From Patescibacteria group bacterium (GTDB lineage: Bacteria > Patescibacteriota > Minisyncoccia > Minisyncoccales > UBA10102): DNA of 64,000 nucleotides. The notes beneath the pieces are model-generated. The model was given only the letters and a program-made list of their open reading frames with translations, had not been told where the DNA came from and did not search any database. Location: assembly GCA_024239055.1 (NCBI GenBank), contig JANBVJ010000001.1:129277-193276 (forward strand), written 5' to 3'. The translations under genes were made by a program, and so were the position numbers. Position 1 is the stretch's first letter; each line of letters starts with the position of its first letter. Below are positions 19,221 to 46,274 of the stretch, piece by piece.

Positions 19221-20054
19221 ATGGACAAAAAAACTCTCATTATTCACATTCCAGTTATTCATAAAGGATATTTAGATTTTCTTCAAAAACAAAAAGATAG
19301 AATATCGCGCGTGTTTGTTTTTGATAACGCGCTCCTTCAGAATCTTGGAGTTACGCAGGATATTGCATCTATTGATGCTGAAACTATAAAACAATTATTG
19401 AGTAACATGGGATTCCAGCATGTTTCAATACTTTCAAAAGATAATATTGGAGAAATTGGAAGTCAAGGATTAATTTTGATCCAGGATGAAATTTCAAGGA
19501 AATTTTACGAGACACATCTTAAAAAACAAGATGTGGAATGGGTCTCTGTATTTTTGAGATGGGACAAGGATTCTGTGGCGTCAGATGATCTTTCTAATCT
19601 CAAAGGAGTGCCCACTACTTCAGGTTCCTTGGATATGGAGATGATGGGGGAGGCATACAAAGAGTCTGAAAAGAGTGGGGACTGGTGGCGTCAGGTTGGG
19701 GCAGTATTGGTAAAAGACGGAAATATTGTTCTGCGCGCATACAATCAGGGCATGCCAAGCGACCACACGCCATACCAAACAGGGGCTGTTAGAGATCTTT
19801 TCAAAGCAGGAGAGAAGCCAGAACTCGCAAACACTATTCATGCAGAACAAAGTATTGTGGCGGAAGCGGCAAGAGAGGGGATTGCGCTAGAGGGGACTTC
19901 TTTATACGTTACTCATTTTCCTTGTCCGGTTTGTACAAAGTTGATTGTTCACTCTGGTATTGCAAGTCTCTATTTTAAAGAGGGCTCTGCCGTATTTGAT
20001 GGCAAGATAGTGTTGGAAACAGGAGGTGTGAAACTTTTTATAATTCCAAGGTGA
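19221..20054 (+). CDS. dCMP deaminase (C-terminal half) fused to an about 140-aa N-terminal domain of unknown function
   Basis: Zinc deaminase motifs HAEQSIV and PCPVCTKLI in residues about 150-277. The N-terminal MDKKTLIIHIPVIHKGYLDFL.. is unassigned. An extended -10 TGcTATAAT (19208-19213) lies 7 nt before the ATG. Confidence 0.8.
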   Translation: MDKKTLIIHIPVIHKGYLDFLQKQKDRISRVFVFDNALLQNLGVTQDIASIDAETIKQLLSNMGFQHVSILSKDNIGEIGSQGLILIQDEISRKFYETHLKKQDVEWVSVFLRWDKDSVASDDLSNLKGVPTTSGSLDMEMMGEAYKESEKSGDWWRQVGAVLVKDGNIVLRAYNQGMPSDHTPYQTGAVRDLFKAGEKPELANTIHAEQSIVAEAAREGIALEGTSLYVTHFPCPVCTKLIVHSGIASLYFKEGSAVFDGKIVLETGGVKLFIIPR

Positions 20055-20057
20055 GTA

Positions 20058-20086
20058 TTGACCAGCGGATTATTCCGTGGTATTTT
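20058..20086 (+). promoter_or_regulatory. promoter of the GC-rich HIT gene
   Basis: TTGACC, 17 nt, TATTTT, with TGg immediately upstream of the -10. Confidence 0.5.
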
Positions 20087-20126
20087 ATTAAAACAAACAA
20101 GTATGCACATACTGGAGGTGAGTTGA

Positions 20127-20615
20127 TTGTCTGCTACGAATGAAATAACGAATTCAGGGGAACTTGTCGATACAAAATACGCTGGCGAAGCTGGGGAAGG
20201 CGCCTCAGAATACCGCCGGATACTCGATAGAGCAGAGGAAAGACAAGAGTGTCCTTTCTGCCCCGAGTTCCTCCAGCAGGGGAATGAGGTTCTCCACAAG
20301 GTGTCTGGATGGAGCGTAATCTCCAACAAGTGGCCTTACGAGAACGCAGAGACCCATCTGCTGTTTATTCCAGACCGTCACATCACCGACATCGTGGATG
20401 TGGTGCTCAGGGATTGGTTCGCAATCAGAAAGGCGACTGCCTGGGCGCGAGAGCAATACGGGGCCCTCATGGATGGTGGCGCCCTCGTCGTAAGGTATGG
20501 CCTGCGTTCTGGGGTTACAGTGCGCCATCTCCATTTCCAGCTCATTACCGCAAGGGTGGATCCTGAGACTGGAGAGGTGCCAGAAGGTAAACACGTCGTC
20601 TTCCCAATTGGATAA
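20127..20615 (+). CDS. HIT-superfamily protein, GalT-branch-like (CPFC knuckle + HxHxQ); higher-GC islet gene
   Basis: TTG start 6 nt after GGAGGTG. It has ECPFCPEF.., WPYENAETHLLFIP, and RHLHFQLI. GC is about 55% against about 40% in the flanks. Confidence 0.75.
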   Translation: MSATNEITNSGELVDTKYAGEAGEGASEYRRILDRAEERQECPFCPEFLQQGNEVLHKVSGWSVISNKWPYENAETHLLFIPDRHITDIVDVVLRDWFAIRKATAWAREQYGALMDGGALVVRYGLRSGVTVRHLHFQLITARVDPETGEVPEGKHVVFPIG

Positions 20616-20632
20616 GCTACTGGGGTGGCTGC

Positions 20633-20668
20633 GAAGAGTCGGTTGGAAACTTCCGACTCTCTTCTTTT
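20633..20668 (+). terminator. intrinsic terminator after the HIT gene
   Basis: AGAGTCGG..CCGACTCT stem followed by a T-rich run. Confidence 0.6.
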
Positions 20669-20696
20669 ACCGGTAAATATGCTATCTTATGTTTAT

Positions 20697-21518
20697 ATGA
20701 AGCAGTATCAAGATTTATTGAGACACGTGTTGGAAAATGGGGAGCGGAAGGGTGACCCTCAGGGAGTAGGGAACCTTGCGGTCTGTGGTTACCAGATGCG
20801 TTTTAATATGGATGATGGTTTTCCATTGATTACTACAAAAAAAGTACACCTAAAATCCATTATTTATGAACTCCTGTGGTTTATTAAAGGAGATACTAAT
20901 GTAAAGTATCTTAACGACCACGGAGTTACCATTTGGGATGAATGGGCAACTCCAGAGATGGCAGCCAAGTACGGTAACAAGCCAGGAGAGCTTGGCCCGA
21001 TTTATGGCGAGAAGTGGCGTCGTTGGAAGACGAGAGAAGGAGGGACGATTGATCAGCTGAGTGAGGCCATAAAAGAGATAAAGAACTTTCCTGATTCAAG
21101 ACGTCTGGTTGTGACATCCTGGGATCCAGAAGACGTAGATAAGGTATTTGTTGCTCCTTGTCACTGCTTCTTTAAGTTCTTTGTTGCTCAAGATAAGCTC
21201 TCCCTTCATCTTTTTCAGAGAAGTGCAGATACCTTTTTAGGTGTTCCTTTTAATATTGCTTCTTATTCTTTGCTTTTGATGATGGTAGCTCAAGCTACGG
21301 GTTTGAAAGCTCATGAATTTGTGCATACGCTCTCTGATACTCATTTGTACACCAACCACATTGAGCAGGCAAAGCTTCAAATAGCGCGAGAGCCGAGACC
21401 TTTGCCTAAAATGATTCTAAATCCAAAGGTAAAAGATATCTTTGACTTTAAATACGAAGACTTTACGCTTGAGGGATATGATCCTCATCCAGGGATTAAA
21501 GCGCCAATAGCAGTATAG
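20697..21518 (+). CDS. thyA: thymidylate synthase (ThyA type)
   Basis: Collinear with E. coli ThyA as I recall it: MKQYQDLL.., [53 protein letters not shown] place the start at the internal ATG 20697. Confidence 0.95.
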
Positions 21519-21520
21519 CT

Positions 21521-21967
21521 CTATCCTCCAATAGAGAGACTTACTTTCTTTGTACGTTTTGTTTTTTTGTCTTTCTTGGGAGAGAAGAGATGAAAATGGA
21601 GGTGGGTTACAGAGGCTCCAGTCACGCTTGTTTTGCCGAATCTTCCCATAAAGAGTCCGCCCTTGATTTTATATTCTCTAACAGCCCATTTCGCAAGGCC
21701 TAGGATAGTTTGCAGGTCTTTTGTTGTTAGTTCTAATAGGGTCTCTTTGTGCGTGAAGTTTAAGATAATAAAGTGATGGTTCGTGTTTTTGTAAGGCCAG
21801 CTGTTTTTCGTAATAAACCATCCTTCTTTGCGTTTAAGGATAGGGTTTTTGTGATACTTGAAATTCTCCTTGCAGAACGGACACTTTCCTCTGGATTGTA
21901 TCTTTGCAATAACTTTCTCGTACTCTCCCTTCCGAGCGTTTTTGAGGTTTACTACCTCTTTAGTCAT
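21521..21967 (-). CDS. HIT-family protein (CPFC knuckle + HxHxH), native-composition paralog of the 20127 gene
   Basis: KCPFCKENF.., WPYKNTNHHFIIL, THLHFHLF. Its start ATG 21967 overlaps the upstream stop by 8 nt (ATGACTAA). Confidence 0.8.
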   Translation of the reverse strand: MTKEVVNLKNARKGEYEKVIAKIQSRGKCPFCKENFKYHKNPILKRKEGWFITKNSWPYKNTNHHFIILNFTHKETLLELTTKDLQTILGLAKWAVREYKIKGGLFMGRFGKTSVTGASVTHLHFHLFSPKKDKKTKRTKKVSLSIGG

Positions 21968-22499
21968 TCTGTTTTTTGAGTCCTGCAAGCATGGTCTCAA
22001 GATGCTTTTTTACAGTTCCTTCCACAATGGCGGTTGAGGATGTATCTTCTGCCTGACGCGGAAGAACTAAAACTTCCTCCACATACTGTTTTATTTCATT
22101 GATTTGATCTTCTGGATAGCTATCTGGGGTGGTGACAAACAAATGAGGTCTAATAGTATCAACCAAGCTATACTGCCATCTTCCTTTCTCATCAATATCA
22201 TCAACTAGGGTAACATAGTCAACACAGTCCTGATACTGAAGCATTTCCATTCGTTCGTCCTGTGGGATGATGGGTCTTAATTCATTCTTGTATATCTTAA
22301 TTCCCCGATCACTGTCTGCTCCGACCACAAGAACATCTCCCTGTTCTTTTGCCTTTATTAGATAGCGAAGATGACCCACATGAAGCATATCCCAAGACCC
22401 TATTGTACATATAATTCTGTGTCCCAGCGTCTTGTGTGCATTAATCACATTTTTGAGCGCGTCGTAATCCAAAATTAGAGTATTTTTTGAGGTTTTCAT
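21960..22499 (-). CDS. cytidylyltransferase-like nucleotidyltransferase (HxGH family; TagD/RfaE-domain-II-like)
   Basis: IGSWDMLHVGHLRYLIKAKEQGDVLVVGADSD. Confidence 0.75.
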   Translation of the reverse strand: MKTSKNTLILDYDALKNVINAHKTLGHRIICTIGSWDMLHVGHLRYLIKAKEQGDVLVVGADSDRGIKIYKNELRPIIPQDERMEMLQYQDCVDYVTLVDDIDEKGRWQYSLVDTIRPHLFVTTPDSYPEDQINEIKQYVEEVLVLPRQAEDTSSTAIVEGTVKKHLETMLAGLKKQND

Positions 22500-22572
22500 A
22501 GATAATCGTATTTTTATTATCCCTTTAATTATGCTATTATATCATAATTATATTGAGCAAGCAATTTCTATA

Positions 22573-23064
22573 ATGACTACTTTTATAATAGCGGCCCTCA
22601 CCGCTGACGGATTTATTGGAAAGGATACCGATCATCTAGCTGATTGGACAAGTAAGGAAGACAAAGTCTTTTTTTCTGAGAAATCCAAGAAAGCGGGAGT
22701 TCTTGTGCTGGGTCACAATACTTTCAAGACCATTGGAAAGCCATTGCCTGATAGGCTTAATATTGTGTATGCGCCAGAAGGTACTGTAATTGAAGGCGTT
22801 GAGGTTACACAGAAAGAACCAAAAGAGCTTATAGAAGATTTAGAGAGCAGAGGTTTTACAGAAGTTGCAATTGGCGGAGGTTCTCAGATATATACTATGT
22901 TTATTAAAGCTGGAGTTGTGGATACGTTATACTTAACAGTGGAACCTGTTATCTTTGGTGCTGGAATTAATCTTTTTAATGAACAAATAGATGTTCGTTT
23001 AAAACTTGAGTCGGAAAAGAAACTAAATGATAATACAATTCTGTTGGAGTATAAGGTTTTATAA
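22573..23064 (+). CDS. dihydrofolate-reductase-family protein (RibD C-terminal/DHFR-like)
   Basis: MTTFIIAALTADGFIGK..LVLGHNTFKTIGKPLPDRLNIV..IGGGSQIY; sits between the thyA and tmk genes. Confidence 0.7.
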   Translation: MTTFIIAALTADGFIGKDTDHLADWTSKEDKVFFSEKSKKAGVLVLGHNTFKTIGKPLPDRLNIVYAPEGTVIEGVEVTQKEPKELIEDLESRGFTEVAIGGGSQIYTMFIKAGVVDTLYLTVEPVIFGAGINLFNEQIDVRLKLESEKKLNDNTILLEYKVL

Positions 23065-23078
23065 AGAATAAAAGACCC

Positions 23079-23690
23079 ATGGAAAATGAATATCCTGGAA
23101 AATTTATTGTTTTTGAAGGACTGGATGGCTCTGGTCAATCAACGCAGACAAACCTCTTGAAACATTTTCTGTCAAAGCAAGGATATAGTATACTTATTAC
23201 AAAAGAACCAACATTAGATTCGCAAGCCGGTAAACTTATTAGATCGGCTTTAGACAAAGAGAAGGAATTATCTCCAAAGGAGTTGCAGCAGCTCTTTGCT
23301 GAAGATAGAAAGGAGCACGTTAATAATGTTATTATACCCGCATTAGAAGTAGGAACCTGGGTAATTAGTGATAGGTATTTCTTCTCAAGTTTTGCATTTG
23401 GTGCGTCTGATGGTATTGATATTGAATGGCTTATTGAAATAAATAAGGGGTTTCCTTTGCCAGATGCCACCTTTCTTTTGGAGGTGAGGCCAGAGATATG
23501 TGTACAAAGAATTCAATCCAGAGGTAAACCACAACAGCTTTTTGAATACGAAGAAAAACTTAAAAATGTATGGGAAGGATATAAAAAAGTGGCAGATCGA
23601 TTTAATGGAATTCACATAATAGATGGAGAACAATCAATAGAAAAGGTTGCAGAGGATGTTACAGGTATAATTCAGGATACTCTATTTTAA
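23079..23690 (+). CDS. tmk: thymidylate kinase
   Basis: FIVFEGLDGSGQSTQ P-loop and DRYFFSSFAF. Confidence 0.92.
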   Translation: MENEYPGKFIVFEGLDGSGQSTQTNLLKHFLSKQGYSILITKEPTLDSQAGKLIRSALDKEKELSPKELQQLFAEDRKEHVNNVIIPALEVGTWVISDRYFFSSFAFGASDGIDIEWLIEINKGFPLPDATFLLEVRPEICVQRIQSRGKPQQLFEYEEKLKNVWEGYKKVADRFNGIHIIDGEQSIEKVAEDVTGIIQDTLF

Positions 23691-23691
23691 T

Positions 23692-24231
23692 ATGGTACTA
23701 GGCATAAAAGAACTGCATAAGTTAGTAAAAGAAGACAAGCTCGTAGAGAATTTGTCTGAGAGAGAGCTTACGAATCCGGAAGGCGCTGGGTTTGATTTGA
23801 GAATAGGGGAGTTATATGAGGTTTCAGGTCAGGGTTACCTTGGTATAGAACAGAGAGATACTCCTGATATGAAGCTTATTGCTACATTTAAGGAAGGGGA
23901 GAAGAGTGAGATATTGCTAAAGCCCCATACATATTACGCAATAAAGACAGTGGAGGATGTGAATCTACCTGATAATATTTTAGCTATGATGACAGCTCGC
24001 TCAACCCTGTTTCGTTCCGGGATTTCTCTTTTTGGAGGACAAGTACCTCCAGGATACCAAGGAGGTTTAGTTTTAGGAGTTTATAACTTCAGAGATACTG
24101 ATTTTCGTCTTGAAATGGGAGCTCGCGTGGTGCATATTATGTTTTTTGAGGTCAAGGGTACAGGCAACATGTACCGTGGACAATGGAAGGGTGGACGTGT
24201 TACAACTGATGGTAGGGAGACGCAGGTTTAG
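23692..24231 (+). CDS. dcd: dCTP deaminase / dUTPase-superfamily protein
   Basis: 179 aa with GAGFDLRIG.., ARSTLFRSGI, GGQVPPGYQGGLVLGVYN. Confidence 0.75.
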   Translation: MVLGIKELHKLVKEDKLVENLSERELTNPEGAGFDLRIGELYEVSGQGYLGIEQRDTPDMKLIATFKEGEKSEILLKPHTYYAIKTVEDVNLPDNILAMMTARSTLFRSGISLFGGQVPPGYQGGLVLGVYNFRDTDFRLEMGARVVHIMFFEVKGTGNMYRGQWKGGRVTTDGRETQV

Positions 24232-26866: not shown

Positions 26867-28465
26867 TTAGTGAATTTCTTCTTTTTTCTCTTTAAGAAAG
26901 GCACGCCACTGCTCAAAGAATTCAACAAAGAACTGAAATGGAACCTCAAGTATAAAGTTAAAGAGGACTACTAAGATATTATACCGGGCTAGTTGTCCTG
27001 AAAGCCACTTTCCAACCTGAATCATAGGGAGGAAGAATATATCTAAAAAGCCATGGAGTATTCCTTCTTTTTCAGGGAGTACCAACAGCTCTCTGCCGCG
27101 TTGTCTGATTATTGTTCCCGCAAACGCAACTAAAGAGAGGAATATAAGGAATATAACAATGGAGGTTGGAGAGAAGTATAAGAAATTAAGCAACCAGGCG
27201 AGCAGGCCAAAGGAAACAATGAAACTTAGGGCATATAATGTATATACAATCGTTCCAAAGAAAGGACTTTTGCGTTTTGGAAGAGGAATATCTATTGTTT
27301 CTTTCTTTTCATTTTTATAAATGAGTTTCATTACTCCAAATACAACCTGTTGAAAGTTAGTGACAGAGGTAGGTTTTACGGTAGCTACCAATAGAATCAT
27401 TAAGAGCGGCGGTATTAGGATACTCAATGCAACGGCCAGTACATTGATTCCAGATAGGAGATATTGGTCAAGTGGTATCTCAATAACAAGGGCAATGAGC
27501 ACCTTTGAGAGTAATATAGATAGAGTGGAATATACTGCAGCTCTTTTTATTCTCTCTTTTAATCTTAAAAGACGCAGGTTATATGCCTTCTCAATAGCAC
27601 TTTCTGTCTTTTTTGGATTTTCAGATATGTCTTTAAAACCATTTGGGTCTTCTGAAATAATATCTCCTAGAATAAGATAAGGAGTGTCTTGGCGTTCTGC
27701 AACCCTATAGAGACGCTCTGATATTGGATGTCTAAGTACATTTTCAATACTTTTTCTAACTGCATGAATATTTTCTGCTAGTGATATTAAGGTCTTTCTG
27801 GGAAGATTTTGCCATTTAGGATAAAAGCGTTCTAAAAGATGGTGTGAAATAGTTGGAGCATCTAGTTTAAACAATGCTTTTTGTACTGCTGCAAAAATCT
27901 GGTTATCCATTTCTTCTGAAGAAAGCTGTCCTCCTTGAAGCTGTATTTTATCTGCCATTTCAGATGTCATATAGCTAATAAGAGCCCGCTCACGGATTGG
28001 AGGGGAAAGAGTTTCTTCAATTTCGGAAGCCGCAATTCCCAAAAGCCAGTCTTCTAGCGTGCGCTTGTCTTTTGTCCTGAACTCAGATGGTGTTTTTTCA
28101 GAAGAGTTGTTTAAGATATACAGGTACTTATCAATAATCTCTTGCGTTATCTGAATAAGTGAAAGGGGTACTTGATTGTTTGGAAGATGTCCCCCTCGAA
28201 CTAAATCTTCAAGCAGGGGACCTGAAATGCCTTCCCCGTCTGGTTGCAGGAGCAGTCTTCTTCTAAGAATTCTTCCGATAGCTGTCTTTCGCAGTAAATG
28301 CTCTTCTTTCCAGTCAACAACACCCCGTATCTTTTCGTAAAAGGCGGCAACCTGCGAAGCTACCTCATCAACCTCAATAACCCTGCCTCCTTCTTTGGGT
28401 TGTAGACTTGCCTTCCATTCTTTATGTCTTTGTACCAATTCTTTGGTACGTTCTGTAATTTCCAT
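26867..28465 (-). CDS. hypothetical 532-aa protein: about 300-aa cytoplasmic helical part plus a C-terminal polytopic membrane domain
   Basis: Long ORF tightly packed between thrS and miaA (4- and 2-nt gaps). There are several hydrophobic helices after residue about 310. I recognise no motif. Confidence 0.7.
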   Translation of the reverse strand: MEITERTKELVQRHKEWKASLQPKEGGRVIEVDEVASQVAAFYEKIRGVVDWKEEHLLRKTAIGRILRRRLLLQPDGEGISGPLLEDLVRGGHLPNNQVPLSLIQITQEIIDKYLYILNNSSEKTPSEFRTKDKRTLEDWLLGIAASEIEETLSPPIRERALISYMTSEMADKIQLQGGQLSSEEMDNQIFAAVQKALFKLDAPTISHHLLERFYPKWQNLPRKTLISLAENIHAVRKSIENVLRHPISERLYRVAERQDTPYLILGDIISEDPNGFKDISENPKKTESAIEKAYNLRLLRLKERIKRAAVYSTLSILLSKVLIALVIEIPLDQYLLSGINVLAVALSILIPPLLMILLVATVKPTSVTNFQQVVFGVMKLIYKNEKKETIDIPLPKRKSPFFGTIVYTLYALSFIVSFGLLAWLLNFLYFSPTSIVIFLIFLSLVAFAGTIIRQRGRELLVLPEKEGILHGFLDIFFLPMIQVGKWLSGQLARYNILVVLFNFILEVPFQFFVEFFEQWRAFLKEKKEEIH

Positions 28466-43740: not shown

Positions 43741-44199
43741 ATGGCAGAAGAAATAAAAGATACTCCTCAAGAGGAAAAAGAAGAGGAGACAAAAACAAAA
43801 GAGGTTGAGGTTCCCGCTAAGTTTGCAAGCTTAGTTGAGAGCATTGAAAAGCTTTCTGTACTGGACTTAGCTGAGTTAGTTAAGATTCTTGAAGAGAAGT
43901 TTGGTGTCTCAAGTGCCGCTCCCGTGCAAGTTGCAGCCGCAGCTCCGGGTAACGGAGAGGAGGCAGCAGATGATGCAAAGAGTTCCTACAACATTGAATT
44001 AACTGTGGTAGGGGAAAAGAAGATTGAGGTCATTAAAGCCGTACGTGATGCTACAGGCAAAGGACTTAAAGAAGCCAAAGATCTAGTTGACGCCGCAGCA
44101 GCCTCCCCCCAGATGGTTTCAGAGAACGTAAAAGCAGAAGAGGCAGAAGAGCTAAAGAAAAAGTTCACGGAAGCTGGAGCTACTGTTGAACTAAAGTAG
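43741..44199 (+). CDS. rplL: 50S ribosomal protein L7/L12 with an acidic N-terminal extension
   Basis: ..[19 protein letters not shown].. and [24 protein letters not shown]. Confidence 0.94.
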
Positions 44200-46144
44200 T
44201 AATATCTATTTGGTAGACTTTCTTATTATTAAGAATGAAGATGGTCTGACCGTCTTTGGAAACAGCAAAGTCTTCTATGGCATTTAATTCAGGAGACATG
44301 TACTGTCTGACTACATCTCCAAATTTTGTAAGTATAACTACTCTATTCTCTTTTTTATCCAGAATATATAAGTGAGGAAGGTCTGCTTTTGTATAAAGCT
44401 TCTCTATACTTGTTAAAAAGGGAAAAAGCGCTGGGTTTAAGGTTTCGCGATACGTACCCTTAAAGTAACGCTGAAGTTCAGCCAAACCCGATACAATCCA
44501 TACATTTCCATCGACAGCAATGGCATTCCCACCCTCATATGGGGTGGGTTTTTGTTTTGTTTGCGAACTCAACCACAGGATTCCTACCGCTGGAGCCCTG
44601 GAAGATGAAAGAGGGGAGGTATATTTAATAATCTCATGGGATGAAATGTCATATGTATACAAACTTCCTTCAAAACTCTCAAAGAGTTCAAAATGCGTAT
44701 CAGATGAAGAAAACTGGAGCTGTCGTTCACCCCATTGGTTGTTTTCATAGAAAAGAATAAGATTGGGTTCTGCAAAAAAAGTTGGAGTTCCTTCAACTAC
44801 GGTAGCAAACTTAAGATTACGAGATGCACTAGTTTCCTTTAACTCTTGTGTACTTGTGTTGTATGTAATGACTAAAGAGCTAAATGGGTTTGAGAAATAT
44901 AATACTCCTTTGGCAAGTATCATATGTTTAGGACTTGAGTTTAATGTAAGTATAAGTTCTGGATCCTCAATAAATTCAATATTGTTTAATGGAGCTAGTT
45001 CTCTTTCCAAGTTCTGCTTGAACTGCGCAATCTTAAGTCCCATTGCGTTTCCCAGTGTTGTATATGGTTCAACCAGCTGCCAAGCTTCCTGCATAAGAGC
45101 ATTTGCTCTGGCACCCTGTTCTTTGTTAAGAGCCCGAGTGGCCTCTACTTGAAGAGCTTCAGCCCGTTTTAAACTAGAACTTGCCTGGCGTAGTTCTGAG
45201 CTTTGTTCTTCTTTAAAGAGAAAGAAGCCCGCAATTAAAATAAGAATAAATAGAGAAGCAAATATTGCTGTTCTTTTTGGTATAGGTAGGGTAAAGGAAG
45301 GAAGTTTTGAATTAAAAACATTTGGAAGGGACACTTGCGGCTTTTGTATTTGTGGAATTCTAAAAGATGATGGAAGTGAGATTTGAGGAAGTTTCTTTGG
45401 CACGAGAGTTTTCTTTTCTTGTTTTACTGCAACTATAAGTTCTTCCACTAATAGAACAAATAAAATACCTGAAACACCTGTTAATTCTTTTTTCTTTGTC
45501 TCAAATAAAGCCTTGAGCTGTCCCTCTTCTGTTGCAAATACAAGGTCTGAGAGGAGTTTTTGTTTTGAGAGAGCGTCATATAGTTCTTTTGTAATGATAA
45601 ATACTTTATCTCCGGGAGTAACTTCTCCTGCAATAATGCTACTAAACTGCTTTAACCTTACTGCATCCTTCTCAGACTTCTCTATATTCTCTCCAATATT
45701 AGTAAACTTGCCTCGTCTTGCCAGTAACATGACAACAGAACCTGTTTTGGAAACATTAAGTATCTGATTATCTGCAGCTCTTGGAATAATAGTACATATG
45801 GCTACATTGAGATTACCCAACCAATCTACATTACCTTTATTAATTTCGGCAGACAGAAACTCATTTACTTTTTGAAGAGTTCCTTTAAAGATAATCTCAG
45901 CTGTTTCCTTTTTCTTTCCTTTTGCTATTTGAGCTAAAGAGCGAGAAGAGTAGTACTGAGTTTTTACAATACTCGAAATGCGCTGAATGAGCCGTGCATT
46001 CTTTGGAATGGCATTAACTAATTCCCCAACAACGTACATATTCCCAAGCTGCTGTTCTCTCTGGGTTGCTGGTTCATAAAATATGCTTTTGAACAAGCGG
46101 TTACTTTTAGACTTTGGATTGAAGTGAAACTCAAATATTTTCAT
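44180..46144 (-). CDS. hypothetical 654-aa protein: N-terminal globular domain, one TM helix, C-terminal repeat/beta-rich ectodomain
   Basis: The long ORF opens at 46216 (GTG). I prefer ATG 46144 (MKIFEFHF..) because TATAAT lies 6 nt upstream. TM helix: [18 protein letters not shown]. It overlaps the rplL end convergently by 20 nt. Confidence 0.7.
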
Positions 46145-46274
46145 TCCTCTATTATATTCTATATTTCCATATACTTCAAAATAAGAGGACACTAGTTCAA
46201 GTCCAGTTACGTCCACATTTTTCTATAGTATAATCAATGTAGCTACAGATACAGGAAAGGATCTAAACAGGATT

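Follow-up and report, generated by a model that had tools for sequence, protein, structure and literature searches.

A Patescibacteria thymidylate gene cluster that includes a conserved nucleotidyltransferase, a HIT protein, and a deaminase with an additional N-terminal domain

In a window of 64,000 nucleotides (nt) from a Patescibacteria group bacterium (contig JANBVJ010000001.1; "the window" refers to this whole stretch of analyzed DNA), genes for the synthesis of deoxythymidine monophosphate (dTMP) share a block of about 5 kb (positions 19221–24231; eight open reading frames, ORFs) with genes for an HxGH-type nucleotidyltransferase (hereafter NTase) and two HIT proteins (HIT1 and HIT2). We propose that this block is the Patescibacteria form of the thymidylate operon. 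Its core would consist of the NTase, HIT2, a deoxycytidine monophosphate (dCMP) deaminase extended by an N-terminal domain (DeamN), and a thymidylate synthase, either ThyA or an archaeal-type enzyme; the NTase and HIT2 would route deoxycytidine triphosphate (dCTP) to deoxyuridine monophosphate (dUMP). This proposal, which derives from sequence comparison, is tentative, and we give it a probability of about 0.35. What is new is a thymidylate operon with two conserved, uncharacterized enzymes and a new deaminase domain architecture; the catalytic core is textbook. The original prediction for this DNA, made from its letters, had listed eight genes in the block, and all eight ORFs were found. It had also regarded the HIT and NTase genes as a non-textbook addition among the dTMP genes, a view that holds: these genes are conserved and coupled, and no family defines them.

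Conservation of the neighborhood was assessed by scanning the HIT2 alignment against one genome per GTDB species and mapping the window's proteins onto the ORFs of each locus. The scan yielded 80 genomes, each of a different species, that represent at least 17 named lineages of Patescibacteria, among them Paceibacterota, Nealson-, Staskawicz-, Wildermuth-, Portnoy-, Adler-, Kaiser-, and Nomurabacteria, and also Terry-, Wolfe-, Buchanan-, Abawaca-, Ryan-, and Colwellbacteria, Moraniibacteriota, WWE3, and Saccharimonadia. The NTase, the deaminase fusion, a HIT protein, and a thymidylate synthase were found together in at least 64 of these 80 loci, with a median span of 3.0 kb; the remaining loci are mostly short contigs or have a weaker-scoring ThyA. 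That this co-location, maintained through several rearrangements, is far beyond chance can be considered confirmed. The HIT and NTase genes are thus syntenic with thyA and the deaminase gene across these lineages, where they are coupled and sometimes fused. The association with thyA, tmk, and dcd from which the original prediction started survives in part: thyA is conserved, but Tmk and Dcd are variable, and the anchor of the neighborhood is the deaminase together with the thymidylate synthase.

The internal gene order takes at least four arrangements: NTase>HIT2>ThyA<Deam<, HIT2>ThyA<Deam<NTase<, NTase>HIT2>Deam>ThyA>, and NTase>Deam>HIT2>altTS>Tmk>, the last of which is colinear with the pathway proposed below. 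The trio of NTase, HIT2, and deaminase stays constant while non-orthologous genes displace one another around it (two types of thymidylate synthase and two of DHFR), a pattern that speaks for a functional organization rather than a frozen gene order. Within the trio, spacing is tight. The deaminase gene lies directly downstream of that for the NTase, on the same strand, in 41 loci (median gap 1 nt; at most 10 nt in 33 of them), and HIT2 occupies the same position in 37 loci (median gap -4 nt). In the window, HIT2 (21521–21967, minus strand) and the NTase (21960–22499, minus strand) overlap by 8 nt, exactly as the original prediction had read this junction. On the minus strand (...CAGAATGACTAA...), the ATG starts HIT2 (MTKEVV) and the TAA ends the NTase; the 8-nt stretch shared by the NTase stop and the HIT2 start is ATGACTAA. 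Three divergent proteins seeded with DeamN instead of HIT2 all had an NTase immediately upstream, a HIT2 homolog, and ThyA.

Some lineages go beyond adjacency to fusion. A profile search with DeamN returned 445 cluster representatives, nearly all of 270–300 amino acids (aa), i.e., DeamN joined to a deaminase. One protein of 469 aa (P0472), present in at least two samples (ENA ERZ1426824 and ERZ1426813), is a triple fusion of NTase, DeamN, and deaminase; its neighbors are ThyA and a 315-aa DHFR_1 protein, the latter probably a fusion of DHFR and HIT2. In three loci (L073:1963-2910, L085:9347-10432, and L086:9275-10432; ORF segments of 316–386 aa), the N-terminus of HIT2 is extended in frame by a FolA-type DHFR. 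In the lineage with the DHFR-HIT2 fusion, five activities reside on three polypeptides.

The NTase is a member of the cytidylyltransferase family PF01467 (CTP_transf_like; 59 bits vs. a cutoff of 21) and carries HVGH and TSST. Its own family displays the motifs HxGH, VGxDSD, RPIxPExER, and PRQAExTSTT, which in the window copy begin with GSWDMLHVGH and end with PRQAEDTSST. The closest entries in a profile search of the PDB were ECT (3elb; 1.5e-26) and HldC (5x9q; 2.7e-26), and a profile search of proteins returned close relatives with generic names only. The protein was below the cutoffs of all curated NCBIfam equivalogs, including those for RfaE-II, TagD, PPAT, and FAD synthetase. Two specific identities were considered and rejected. 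RfaE domain II/HldC is contradicted by the score of rfaE_dom_II (TIGR02199; 94.3 bits vs. 181.5) and by the dTMP and folate genes that are the neighbors in all loci. An adenylyltransferase of NAD synthesis is ruled out for at least one genome (that of locus L169), in which a bona fide NadD-NadE pair is located 2.4 kb away.

Do these genes simply remain side by side by inherited order, each with a housekeeping role unrelated to dTMP? The NTase would then serve cofactor or envelope synthesis, for instance as a PPAT, as an FAD synthetase resembling RibL, or as a CDP-glycerol synthase resembling TagD, and HIT2 would be a generic Hint protein. The best matches of the NTase do use non-nucleotide acceptors, the source annotations are generic, and the order gyrB-secE-nusG-rplK...gatB-miaA is kept in many loci; the Nealsonbacteria and Pacebacteria share with the window both the cluster and this wider order. 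We nonetheless hold this explanation to be improbable. The four genes stay together through internal rearrangements, and they do so in 19 of the 64 full loci that have no rplK or nusG nearby, i.e., apart from the ribosomal flank seen in the window. Likewise, coupling of the NTase to the deaminase or HIT2 at -4 to +2 nt, the NTase-deaminase and DHFR-HIT2 fusions, a probable degenerate NTase fold attached to the deaminase, and the missed cutoffs for RfaE-II, TagD, PPAT, and FAD synthetase all speak against it.

The deaminase is a protein of 277 aa, of which dCMP_cyt_deam_1 covers residues 138–252 only. The catalytic domain (19626–20054, plus strand; motif HAE...PCxxC) scored 72 bits against PF00383 (cutoff 25), and H207, E209, C235, and C238 are invariant. 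A full-length fold search with Foldseek, dominated by the catalytic domain, placed the dCMP deaminases of T4, S-TIM5, S. mutans, and human at the top (expectation values, E, of 1e-10 to 1e-8). Template-modeling (TM) scores, normalized by the target, were 0.82–0.84 for the S-TIM5 cyanophage enzyme (126–136 aa), 0.63–0.70 for the human enzyme, and 0.65 for that of T4. Assignments to the ComEB equivalog (54.7 bits vs. 219) and to the anti-phage dCTP deaminases (antiphage_deaminase; 63 bits vs. 400) were rejected, as both scores are below the cutoffs.

The remaining N-terminal part of about 135 aa, DeamN (19221–19625, plus strand), had no Pfam match at the gathering score in the window copy. In the DeamN alignment, neither H14 nor G16 varies, and conservation of Y17 is at least 90%; the position of a second His is taken by Tyr or Phe, and the motif (PVIHKGY in the window) directly follows the first strand. 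When the DeamN profile was compared with the PDB, this motif aligned to the HxGH of archaeal nicotinamide mononucleotide (NMN) adenylyltransferases (E 0.03). Of 42 DeamN members, five matched PF01467 and six matched NARF (PF20299), weakly. Alignment of DeamN to the NTase with hhalign put the two motifs in register at an E of 0.0045 and a probability of only 7.7%. An AlphaFold2 model of the domain alone had a mean predicted local distance difference test (pLDDT) value of 83.7, and its top Foldseek matches in the PDB were all HxGH nucleotidyltransferases, namely PPAT, HldC, the cytidylyltransferase domain of Fom1, and TagD (probability 0.97–0.99, TM 0.5–0.57, E 0.01–0.03). Motif, profiles, and model are consistent, if marginally so, with a degenerate HxGH nucleotidyltransferase-fold (Rossmann-like) domain. 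The original prediction had spoken of a "dCMP deaminase fusion". The fused deaminase was indeed there, and the description can be refined in that its N-terminal half would be such a domain. The count of three nucleotidyl-transfer units in the cluster would change accordingly: there would be four such domains with that of the deaminase included.

A domain of this kind could also serve regulation. DeamN would then be an allosteric nucleotide sensor that replaces the classical dCTP/dTTP site, and the NTase and HIT2 would make and destroy an effector (an NDP-X compound, for example, or a dinucleoside polyphosphate) that sets the activity of the deaminase and, with it, the balance of dCTP and deoxythymidine triphosphate (dTTP). 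The catalytic domain is of a minimal type with its best TM score to the S-TIM5 enzyme, which is not known to have a classical allosteric site. Moreover, DeamN retains the nucleotide-binding His and Gly after loss of the second catalytic His, as expected of a binding domain, and synthase, hydrolase, and sensor would be encoded together. On the other hand, signaling enzymes and their sensors are seldom coupled one-to-one or fused, as the NTase and deaminase are, and the DHFR-HIT2 fusion is hard to reconcile with an effector-degrading enzyme. We also know of no NTases of the cytidylyltransferase family that make signaling nucleotides. On balance, we regard this explanation as rather unlikely.

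HIT2 is linked to the HIT superfamily by a DcpS_C score of 24.9 bits (cutoff 24) and by relatives with precomputed PF01230 or PF11969 matches. The HIT2 family numbers 287 matches at 55–65% identity, all from the candidate phyla radiation (CPR). Its features are an N-terminal helix, CPFC, WPY, RFG, and an HxHxH motif (HLHFHLF); C29, C32, H65, H73, H122, H124, and H126 are invariant. Judged by these features, HIT2 is a divergent Hint-branch HIT protein. Comparison with solved structures and curated families gave weak matches only (PDB E 1e-4; Mycoplasma HinT, best E 1.5e-6). Against the Ap4A phosphorylase/ATP adenylyltransferase family NF052622, HIT2 scored 15.7 bits (cutoff 290), and 21 of 26 family members matched weakly (best E 8e-5). 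The GalT branch was rejected for both HIT1 and HIT2: they are single-domain proteins of about 150 aa, compared with about 350 aa in the duplicated GalT, and no GalT Pfam was among the families matched at E ≤0.01. In short, the families that the original prediction had in view gave neither the NTase nor the HIT proteins a defined, unrelated role (rfaE_dom_II, 94 bits vs. 181.5; ATP adenylyltransferase, about 16 bits vs. 290).

In scattered HIT2 orthologs (L169:6128-6595, minus strand; L079:9986-10459; and about five others), the third His of the HIT motif is a Gln (HIHAQ or HLHFQ). The third His therefore seems dispensable for the reaction of this family, and its replacement by Gln would be easier to reconcile with a leaving group of the phosphate type than with a phosphoramidate.

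The same substitution, which is found in transferase-type HIT proteins, could be taken to favor an activation of deoxynucleoside monophosphates that needs no kinase. The NTase would join adenosine monophosphate (AMP), drawn from ATP, to dTMP or dUMP to form a dinucleoside diphosphate, and HIT2 would pass the deoxynucleotidyl group to pyrophosphate (PPi) or phosphate (Pi) to yield a deoxynucleoside tri- or diphosphate. Adenylylation of nucleotide-like monophosphates is known from HxGH nucleotidyltransferases such as NMNAT and FMNAT, and phosphorolytic transfer from some HIT enzymes. However, the window and many loci encode a Tmk, the genes to which coupling extends are those of the deaminase and thymidylate synthase rather than tmk, and the majority motif is the HxHxH of hydrolases. 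Such an activation is thus very improbable.

We return to the proposal that the NTase and HIT2 lead from dCTP to dUMP. The comparative data favor a substrate-level role that is linked to the deaminase and thymidylate synthase. From the observed gene content, folds, conservation, coupling, and fusions, we infer substrates, an order of steps, and the formation of a complex as follows. The NTase and HIT2 would act on the pyrimidine deoxynucleotide itself, in physical coupling with the deaminase. The NTase would move (d)CMP from (d)CTP to a phosphate-bearing acceptor (X-P) with release of PPi. DeamN would bind the resulting NMP-P-X conjugate (NMP, nucleoside monophosphate), possibly as a pseudo-heterodimer with the NTase that resembles the two CT domains of ECT. 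Conversion of C to U by the deaminase would take place on the conjugate or, once cleavage has occurred, on the monophosphate. HIT2 would cut the pyrophosphate bond via a His-NMP intermediate and deliver the 5'-monophosphate to thymidylate synthase and DHFR. The net reaction would be dCTP to dUMP, PPi, and NH3, with no free deoxyuridine triphosphate (dUTP). A stricter "masked nucleotide" version, in which dCTP becomes a dCMP-pyrophosphate conjugate that is deaminated while conjugated by way of DeamN, and from which the HIT protein frees dUMP so that neither free dUTP nor perhaps free dCMP arises, strikes us as unlikely.

Several points weigh against the proposed route. The acceptor X-P has no named candidate, and HldC, the closest characterized relative of the NTase, takes ATP and a sugar-1-phosphate and no pyrimidine donor. 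Support for the DeamN fold is marginal (Foldseek E 0.01–0.03; hhalign probability 7.7%). A single Dcd-Dut, Nudix, or MazG enzyme gives the same net reaction, which makes a three-protein route unparsimonious for a minimal genome, and canonical Dut (6 loci), Nudix proteins (10 loci), and a Nudix-like protein of 198 aa (12 loci) are near enough to do the job. The apparent co-occurrence is also inflated, since most loci were found with HIT2 as bait and the independent seeds amount to three look-ups. Finally, the macro-synteny of gyrB-secE-nusG-rplK...gatB-miaA extends over many lineages, so that conservation is in part a matter of inherited order.

Outside the core, membership varies: Tmk, the Dcd-like gene, DHFR, and HIT1 may each be present or absent, yet every locus has genes of the thymidylate cycle. 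Recurrent neighbors are GlyA (13 loci), DeoC (11), FolD (7), Dut (6), and an NDT/Rcl-like protein (3), and a Pfam NUDIX match was found in 10 loci. Another 12 loci (L001:4330-4950, minus strand, plus 11) encode a conserved protein of about 198 aa that has no Pfam match but includes a stretch similar to a Nudix box, GGHI...REWSEEV; its gene is flanked by DHFR on one side and by Tmk or the NTase on the other. Such company raises the possibility of sanitation during salvage by host-dependent bacteria. In that case, the NTase and HIT2 would turn non-canonical or wrongly phosphorylated pyrimidine nucleotides (modified dCMP or dCTP, dUTP, or dinucleoside polyphosphates) into monophosphates, which would be kept out of DNA and could then be used by the deaminase and thymidylate synthase. 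House-cleaning is the typical function of HIT hydrolases and of the Nudix, Dut, and NDT/Rcl-like enzymes encoded nearby, and DeoC points to deoxynucleotide catabolism or salvage in the neighborhood. House-cleaning enzymes usually stand alone, however, and sanitation leaves unexplained why an NTase should be needed and why it should be coupled and fused to the deaminase; we deem it distinctly unlikely.

The window's ThyA (20697–21518, plus strand) is an equivalog-level thymidylate synthase (NF002497, 419.5 bits vs. a cutoff of 327; TIGR03284, 409 vs. 108). Its ORF opens at a GTG at 20625, and the Pfam match begins at residue 26; the start is likely the MKQYQ at 20697. A protein of about 482 aa with MtrA-like, TS, and PterinBD-DUF4346 domains takes the place of ThyA in 18 loci (e.g., L070:11474-12928, plus strand). 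This archaeal-type MtrA-TS-PterinBD synthase may use a different one-carbon carrier. Among the loci, DHFR is of either the RibD_C-like or the FolA type. The window's DHFR-family reductase (22531–23064, plus strand) matched PF00186 (DHFR_1) with 57.4 bits (cutoff 25) and PF01872 (RibD_C) with 55 (cutoff 24), and it was below the cutoffs of all NCBIfam DHFR equivalogs (e.g., 44.5 bits vs. 168). Tmk, the dTMP kinase (23079–23690, plus strand), reaches equivalog level (TIGR00041; 170.3 bits vs. 83.25).

The last gene of the block encodes a protein of the Dcd/dUTPase fold (23692–24231, plus strand; PF22769, 80.7 bits) with a non-canonical active site. With 83.1 bits against TIGR02274, it does not reach the threshold of 92.8. 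In an alignment with Dcd and Dut proteins from the PDB, its VPPGY...LVLGVYN corresponds to their V-D-P-G and T-L-E, such that Pro stands in place of Asp and Gly in place of Glu; relatives from other loci have H, P, S, or D at the site of the Asp. Based on these replacements, the protein may be inactive or have a different activity. As the canonical Asp and Glu are absent, the standard route from dCTP via dUTP to dUMP may be missing here.

HIT1 (20127–20615, plus strand; CPFC...HLHFQL) is an accessory paralog of HIT2, to which it is 30% identical (E 3e-24). Its matches to HIT and DcpS_C are weak, with Pfam scores below the cutoffs (22.3 and 18.0 bits), and it was found in about 10 of 86 related loci. 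Its GC content is 53.8% (57% at third codon positions), compared with 39.8% for the window and 34–46% for its neighbors. Because of this compositional deviation, HIT1 is probably a laterally acquired paralog that was set between the deaminase gene and thyA. The original prediction had called HIT1 "GalT-like"; this label must be withdrawn. The HxHxQ of the window's HIT1 (HLHFQL) is a coincidence of motif in a HIT2 paralog, and seven of the nine orthologs with a readable motif have HLHFH (HLHFHLI).

The window's HIT2 is identical to the NCBI protein KJI69_00895 of a Patescibacteria group bacterium. Elsewhere, the window carries ordinary housekeeping genes, namely gyrB, secE, nusG, rplK, gatB, miaA, dnaE, dnaB, several aminoacyl-tRNA synthetases, and seven tRNAs. 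Two ORFs, both on the minus strand (26867–28465, 532 aa, and 44180–46216, 678 aa), have no Pfam match at E ≤1e-5. The Nealsonbacteria and Pacebacteria loci (L001-L006) have at their edge, upstream of miaB/miaA, a gene of similar size with no Pfam match (535 or 553 aa). Its position matches that of the large no-Pfam ORF in the window, which resembles a multi-pass membrane protein; the likeness is one of size and place. Among the loci of the scan, the metagenome-assembled genomes of L010-L013, L062, L065, and L079 are labeled "uncultured Candidatus Saccharibacteria", "Gammaproteobacteria", or "Pseudomonadales", yet the gene order and proteins of their modules are Parcubacteria-like. These automated taxonomic labels are probably wrong.

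Two other origins for the cluster were considered and rejected. As a defense system, it gave only weak, domain-level matches in PADLOC, including one to a dCTPase. As a phage-derived or DNA-hypermodification module, it is contradicted by IMG/VR, in which HIT2 had no relatives and viral relatives of the NTase were not beside dTMP genes. Identity of these viral proteins to the NTase does not exceed about 40% across most of its length and reaches 51% only in short local segments. Our literature search turned up no account of thymidylate metabolism in the CPR, and none in which a HIT protein and a cytidylyltransferase accompany a thymidylate synthase or dCMP deaminase.

The synthesis of dTMP is among the best-understood and most-drugged steps of metabolism, and the Patescibacteria make up a large share of bacterial diversity, with minimal genomes and a thought dependence on salvaged nucleotides. 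In this setting, the module would represent either an unrecognized enzymatic step, by which the deaminase and thymidylate synthase are supplied with dCMP or dUMP, or a new control of the dCTP/dTTP balance. If true, the conjugate route would be new biochemistry, i.e., a new pathway architecture for an essential DNA-precursor step across a major bacterial radiation. The current names of the module's proteins ("HldE/RfaE", "Ap4A hydrolase", and plain "deaminase") are misleading. The four proteins are small, soluble, and easily expressed, and the hypothesis space is sharply defined and open to work in vitro.

How does the module compare with known systems? With the classical dCMP-deaminase route, as in Bacillus (ComEB) and phage T4 (Cd/Td/Frd), it shares the zinc deaminase, ThyA, a DHFR-family reductase, and Tmk, with GlyA and FolD nearby. 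Unlike that route, its deaminase always has the extra N-terminal domain, probably of the nucleotidyltransferase fold, and a stand-alone NTase and a HIT protein always accompany the set, coupled or fused to it. The NTase has the fold, HxGH, VGxxSD, RPxxxxxER, and a C-terminal (T/S)STT in common with HldC/RfaE II and with ECT, CCT, and TagD. In contrast to HldC, ECT, and TagD, it has an insertion of its own (DDxDxxGxWQY) and an N-terminal extension, and its context is dTMP synthesis and not the lipopolysaccharide, lipid, or teichoic-acid genes of these kin. ECT (3elb), with its tandem CT domains, offers a structural analogy for a putative pair of NTase and DeamN, as it brings two related CT-fold units together. 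The module differs from ECT in that its folds are normally on separate polypeptides (the P0472 fusion being the exception) and the presumed degenerate unit is joined to a deaminase. HIT1 and HIT2 share HxHxHxx, an upstream CxxC, and a length of about 150 aa with HinT, Fhit, and Ap4A phosphorylases of the Rv2613c type. Unlike other Hint-branch proteins, the HIT2 family has its own N-terminal helix, WPY, and RFG and, in some lineages, the fusion to DHFR.

Two further systems bear on the chemistry. The bifunctional Dcd-Dut enzyme carries out the same net reaction as that proposed for the module, dCTP to dUMP with no free dUTP, but the proteins and chemistry are entirely different. In the FR-900098 pathway, the cytidylyltransferase FrbH puts an NMP on a phosphorylated compound, tailoring takes place on the conjugate, and the hydrolase FrbI releases the NMP. 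There, the cargo is modified, and a Nudix enzyme frees cytidine monophosphate as waste; in the proposed module, the base would be modified, and a HIT protein would free a useful NMP.

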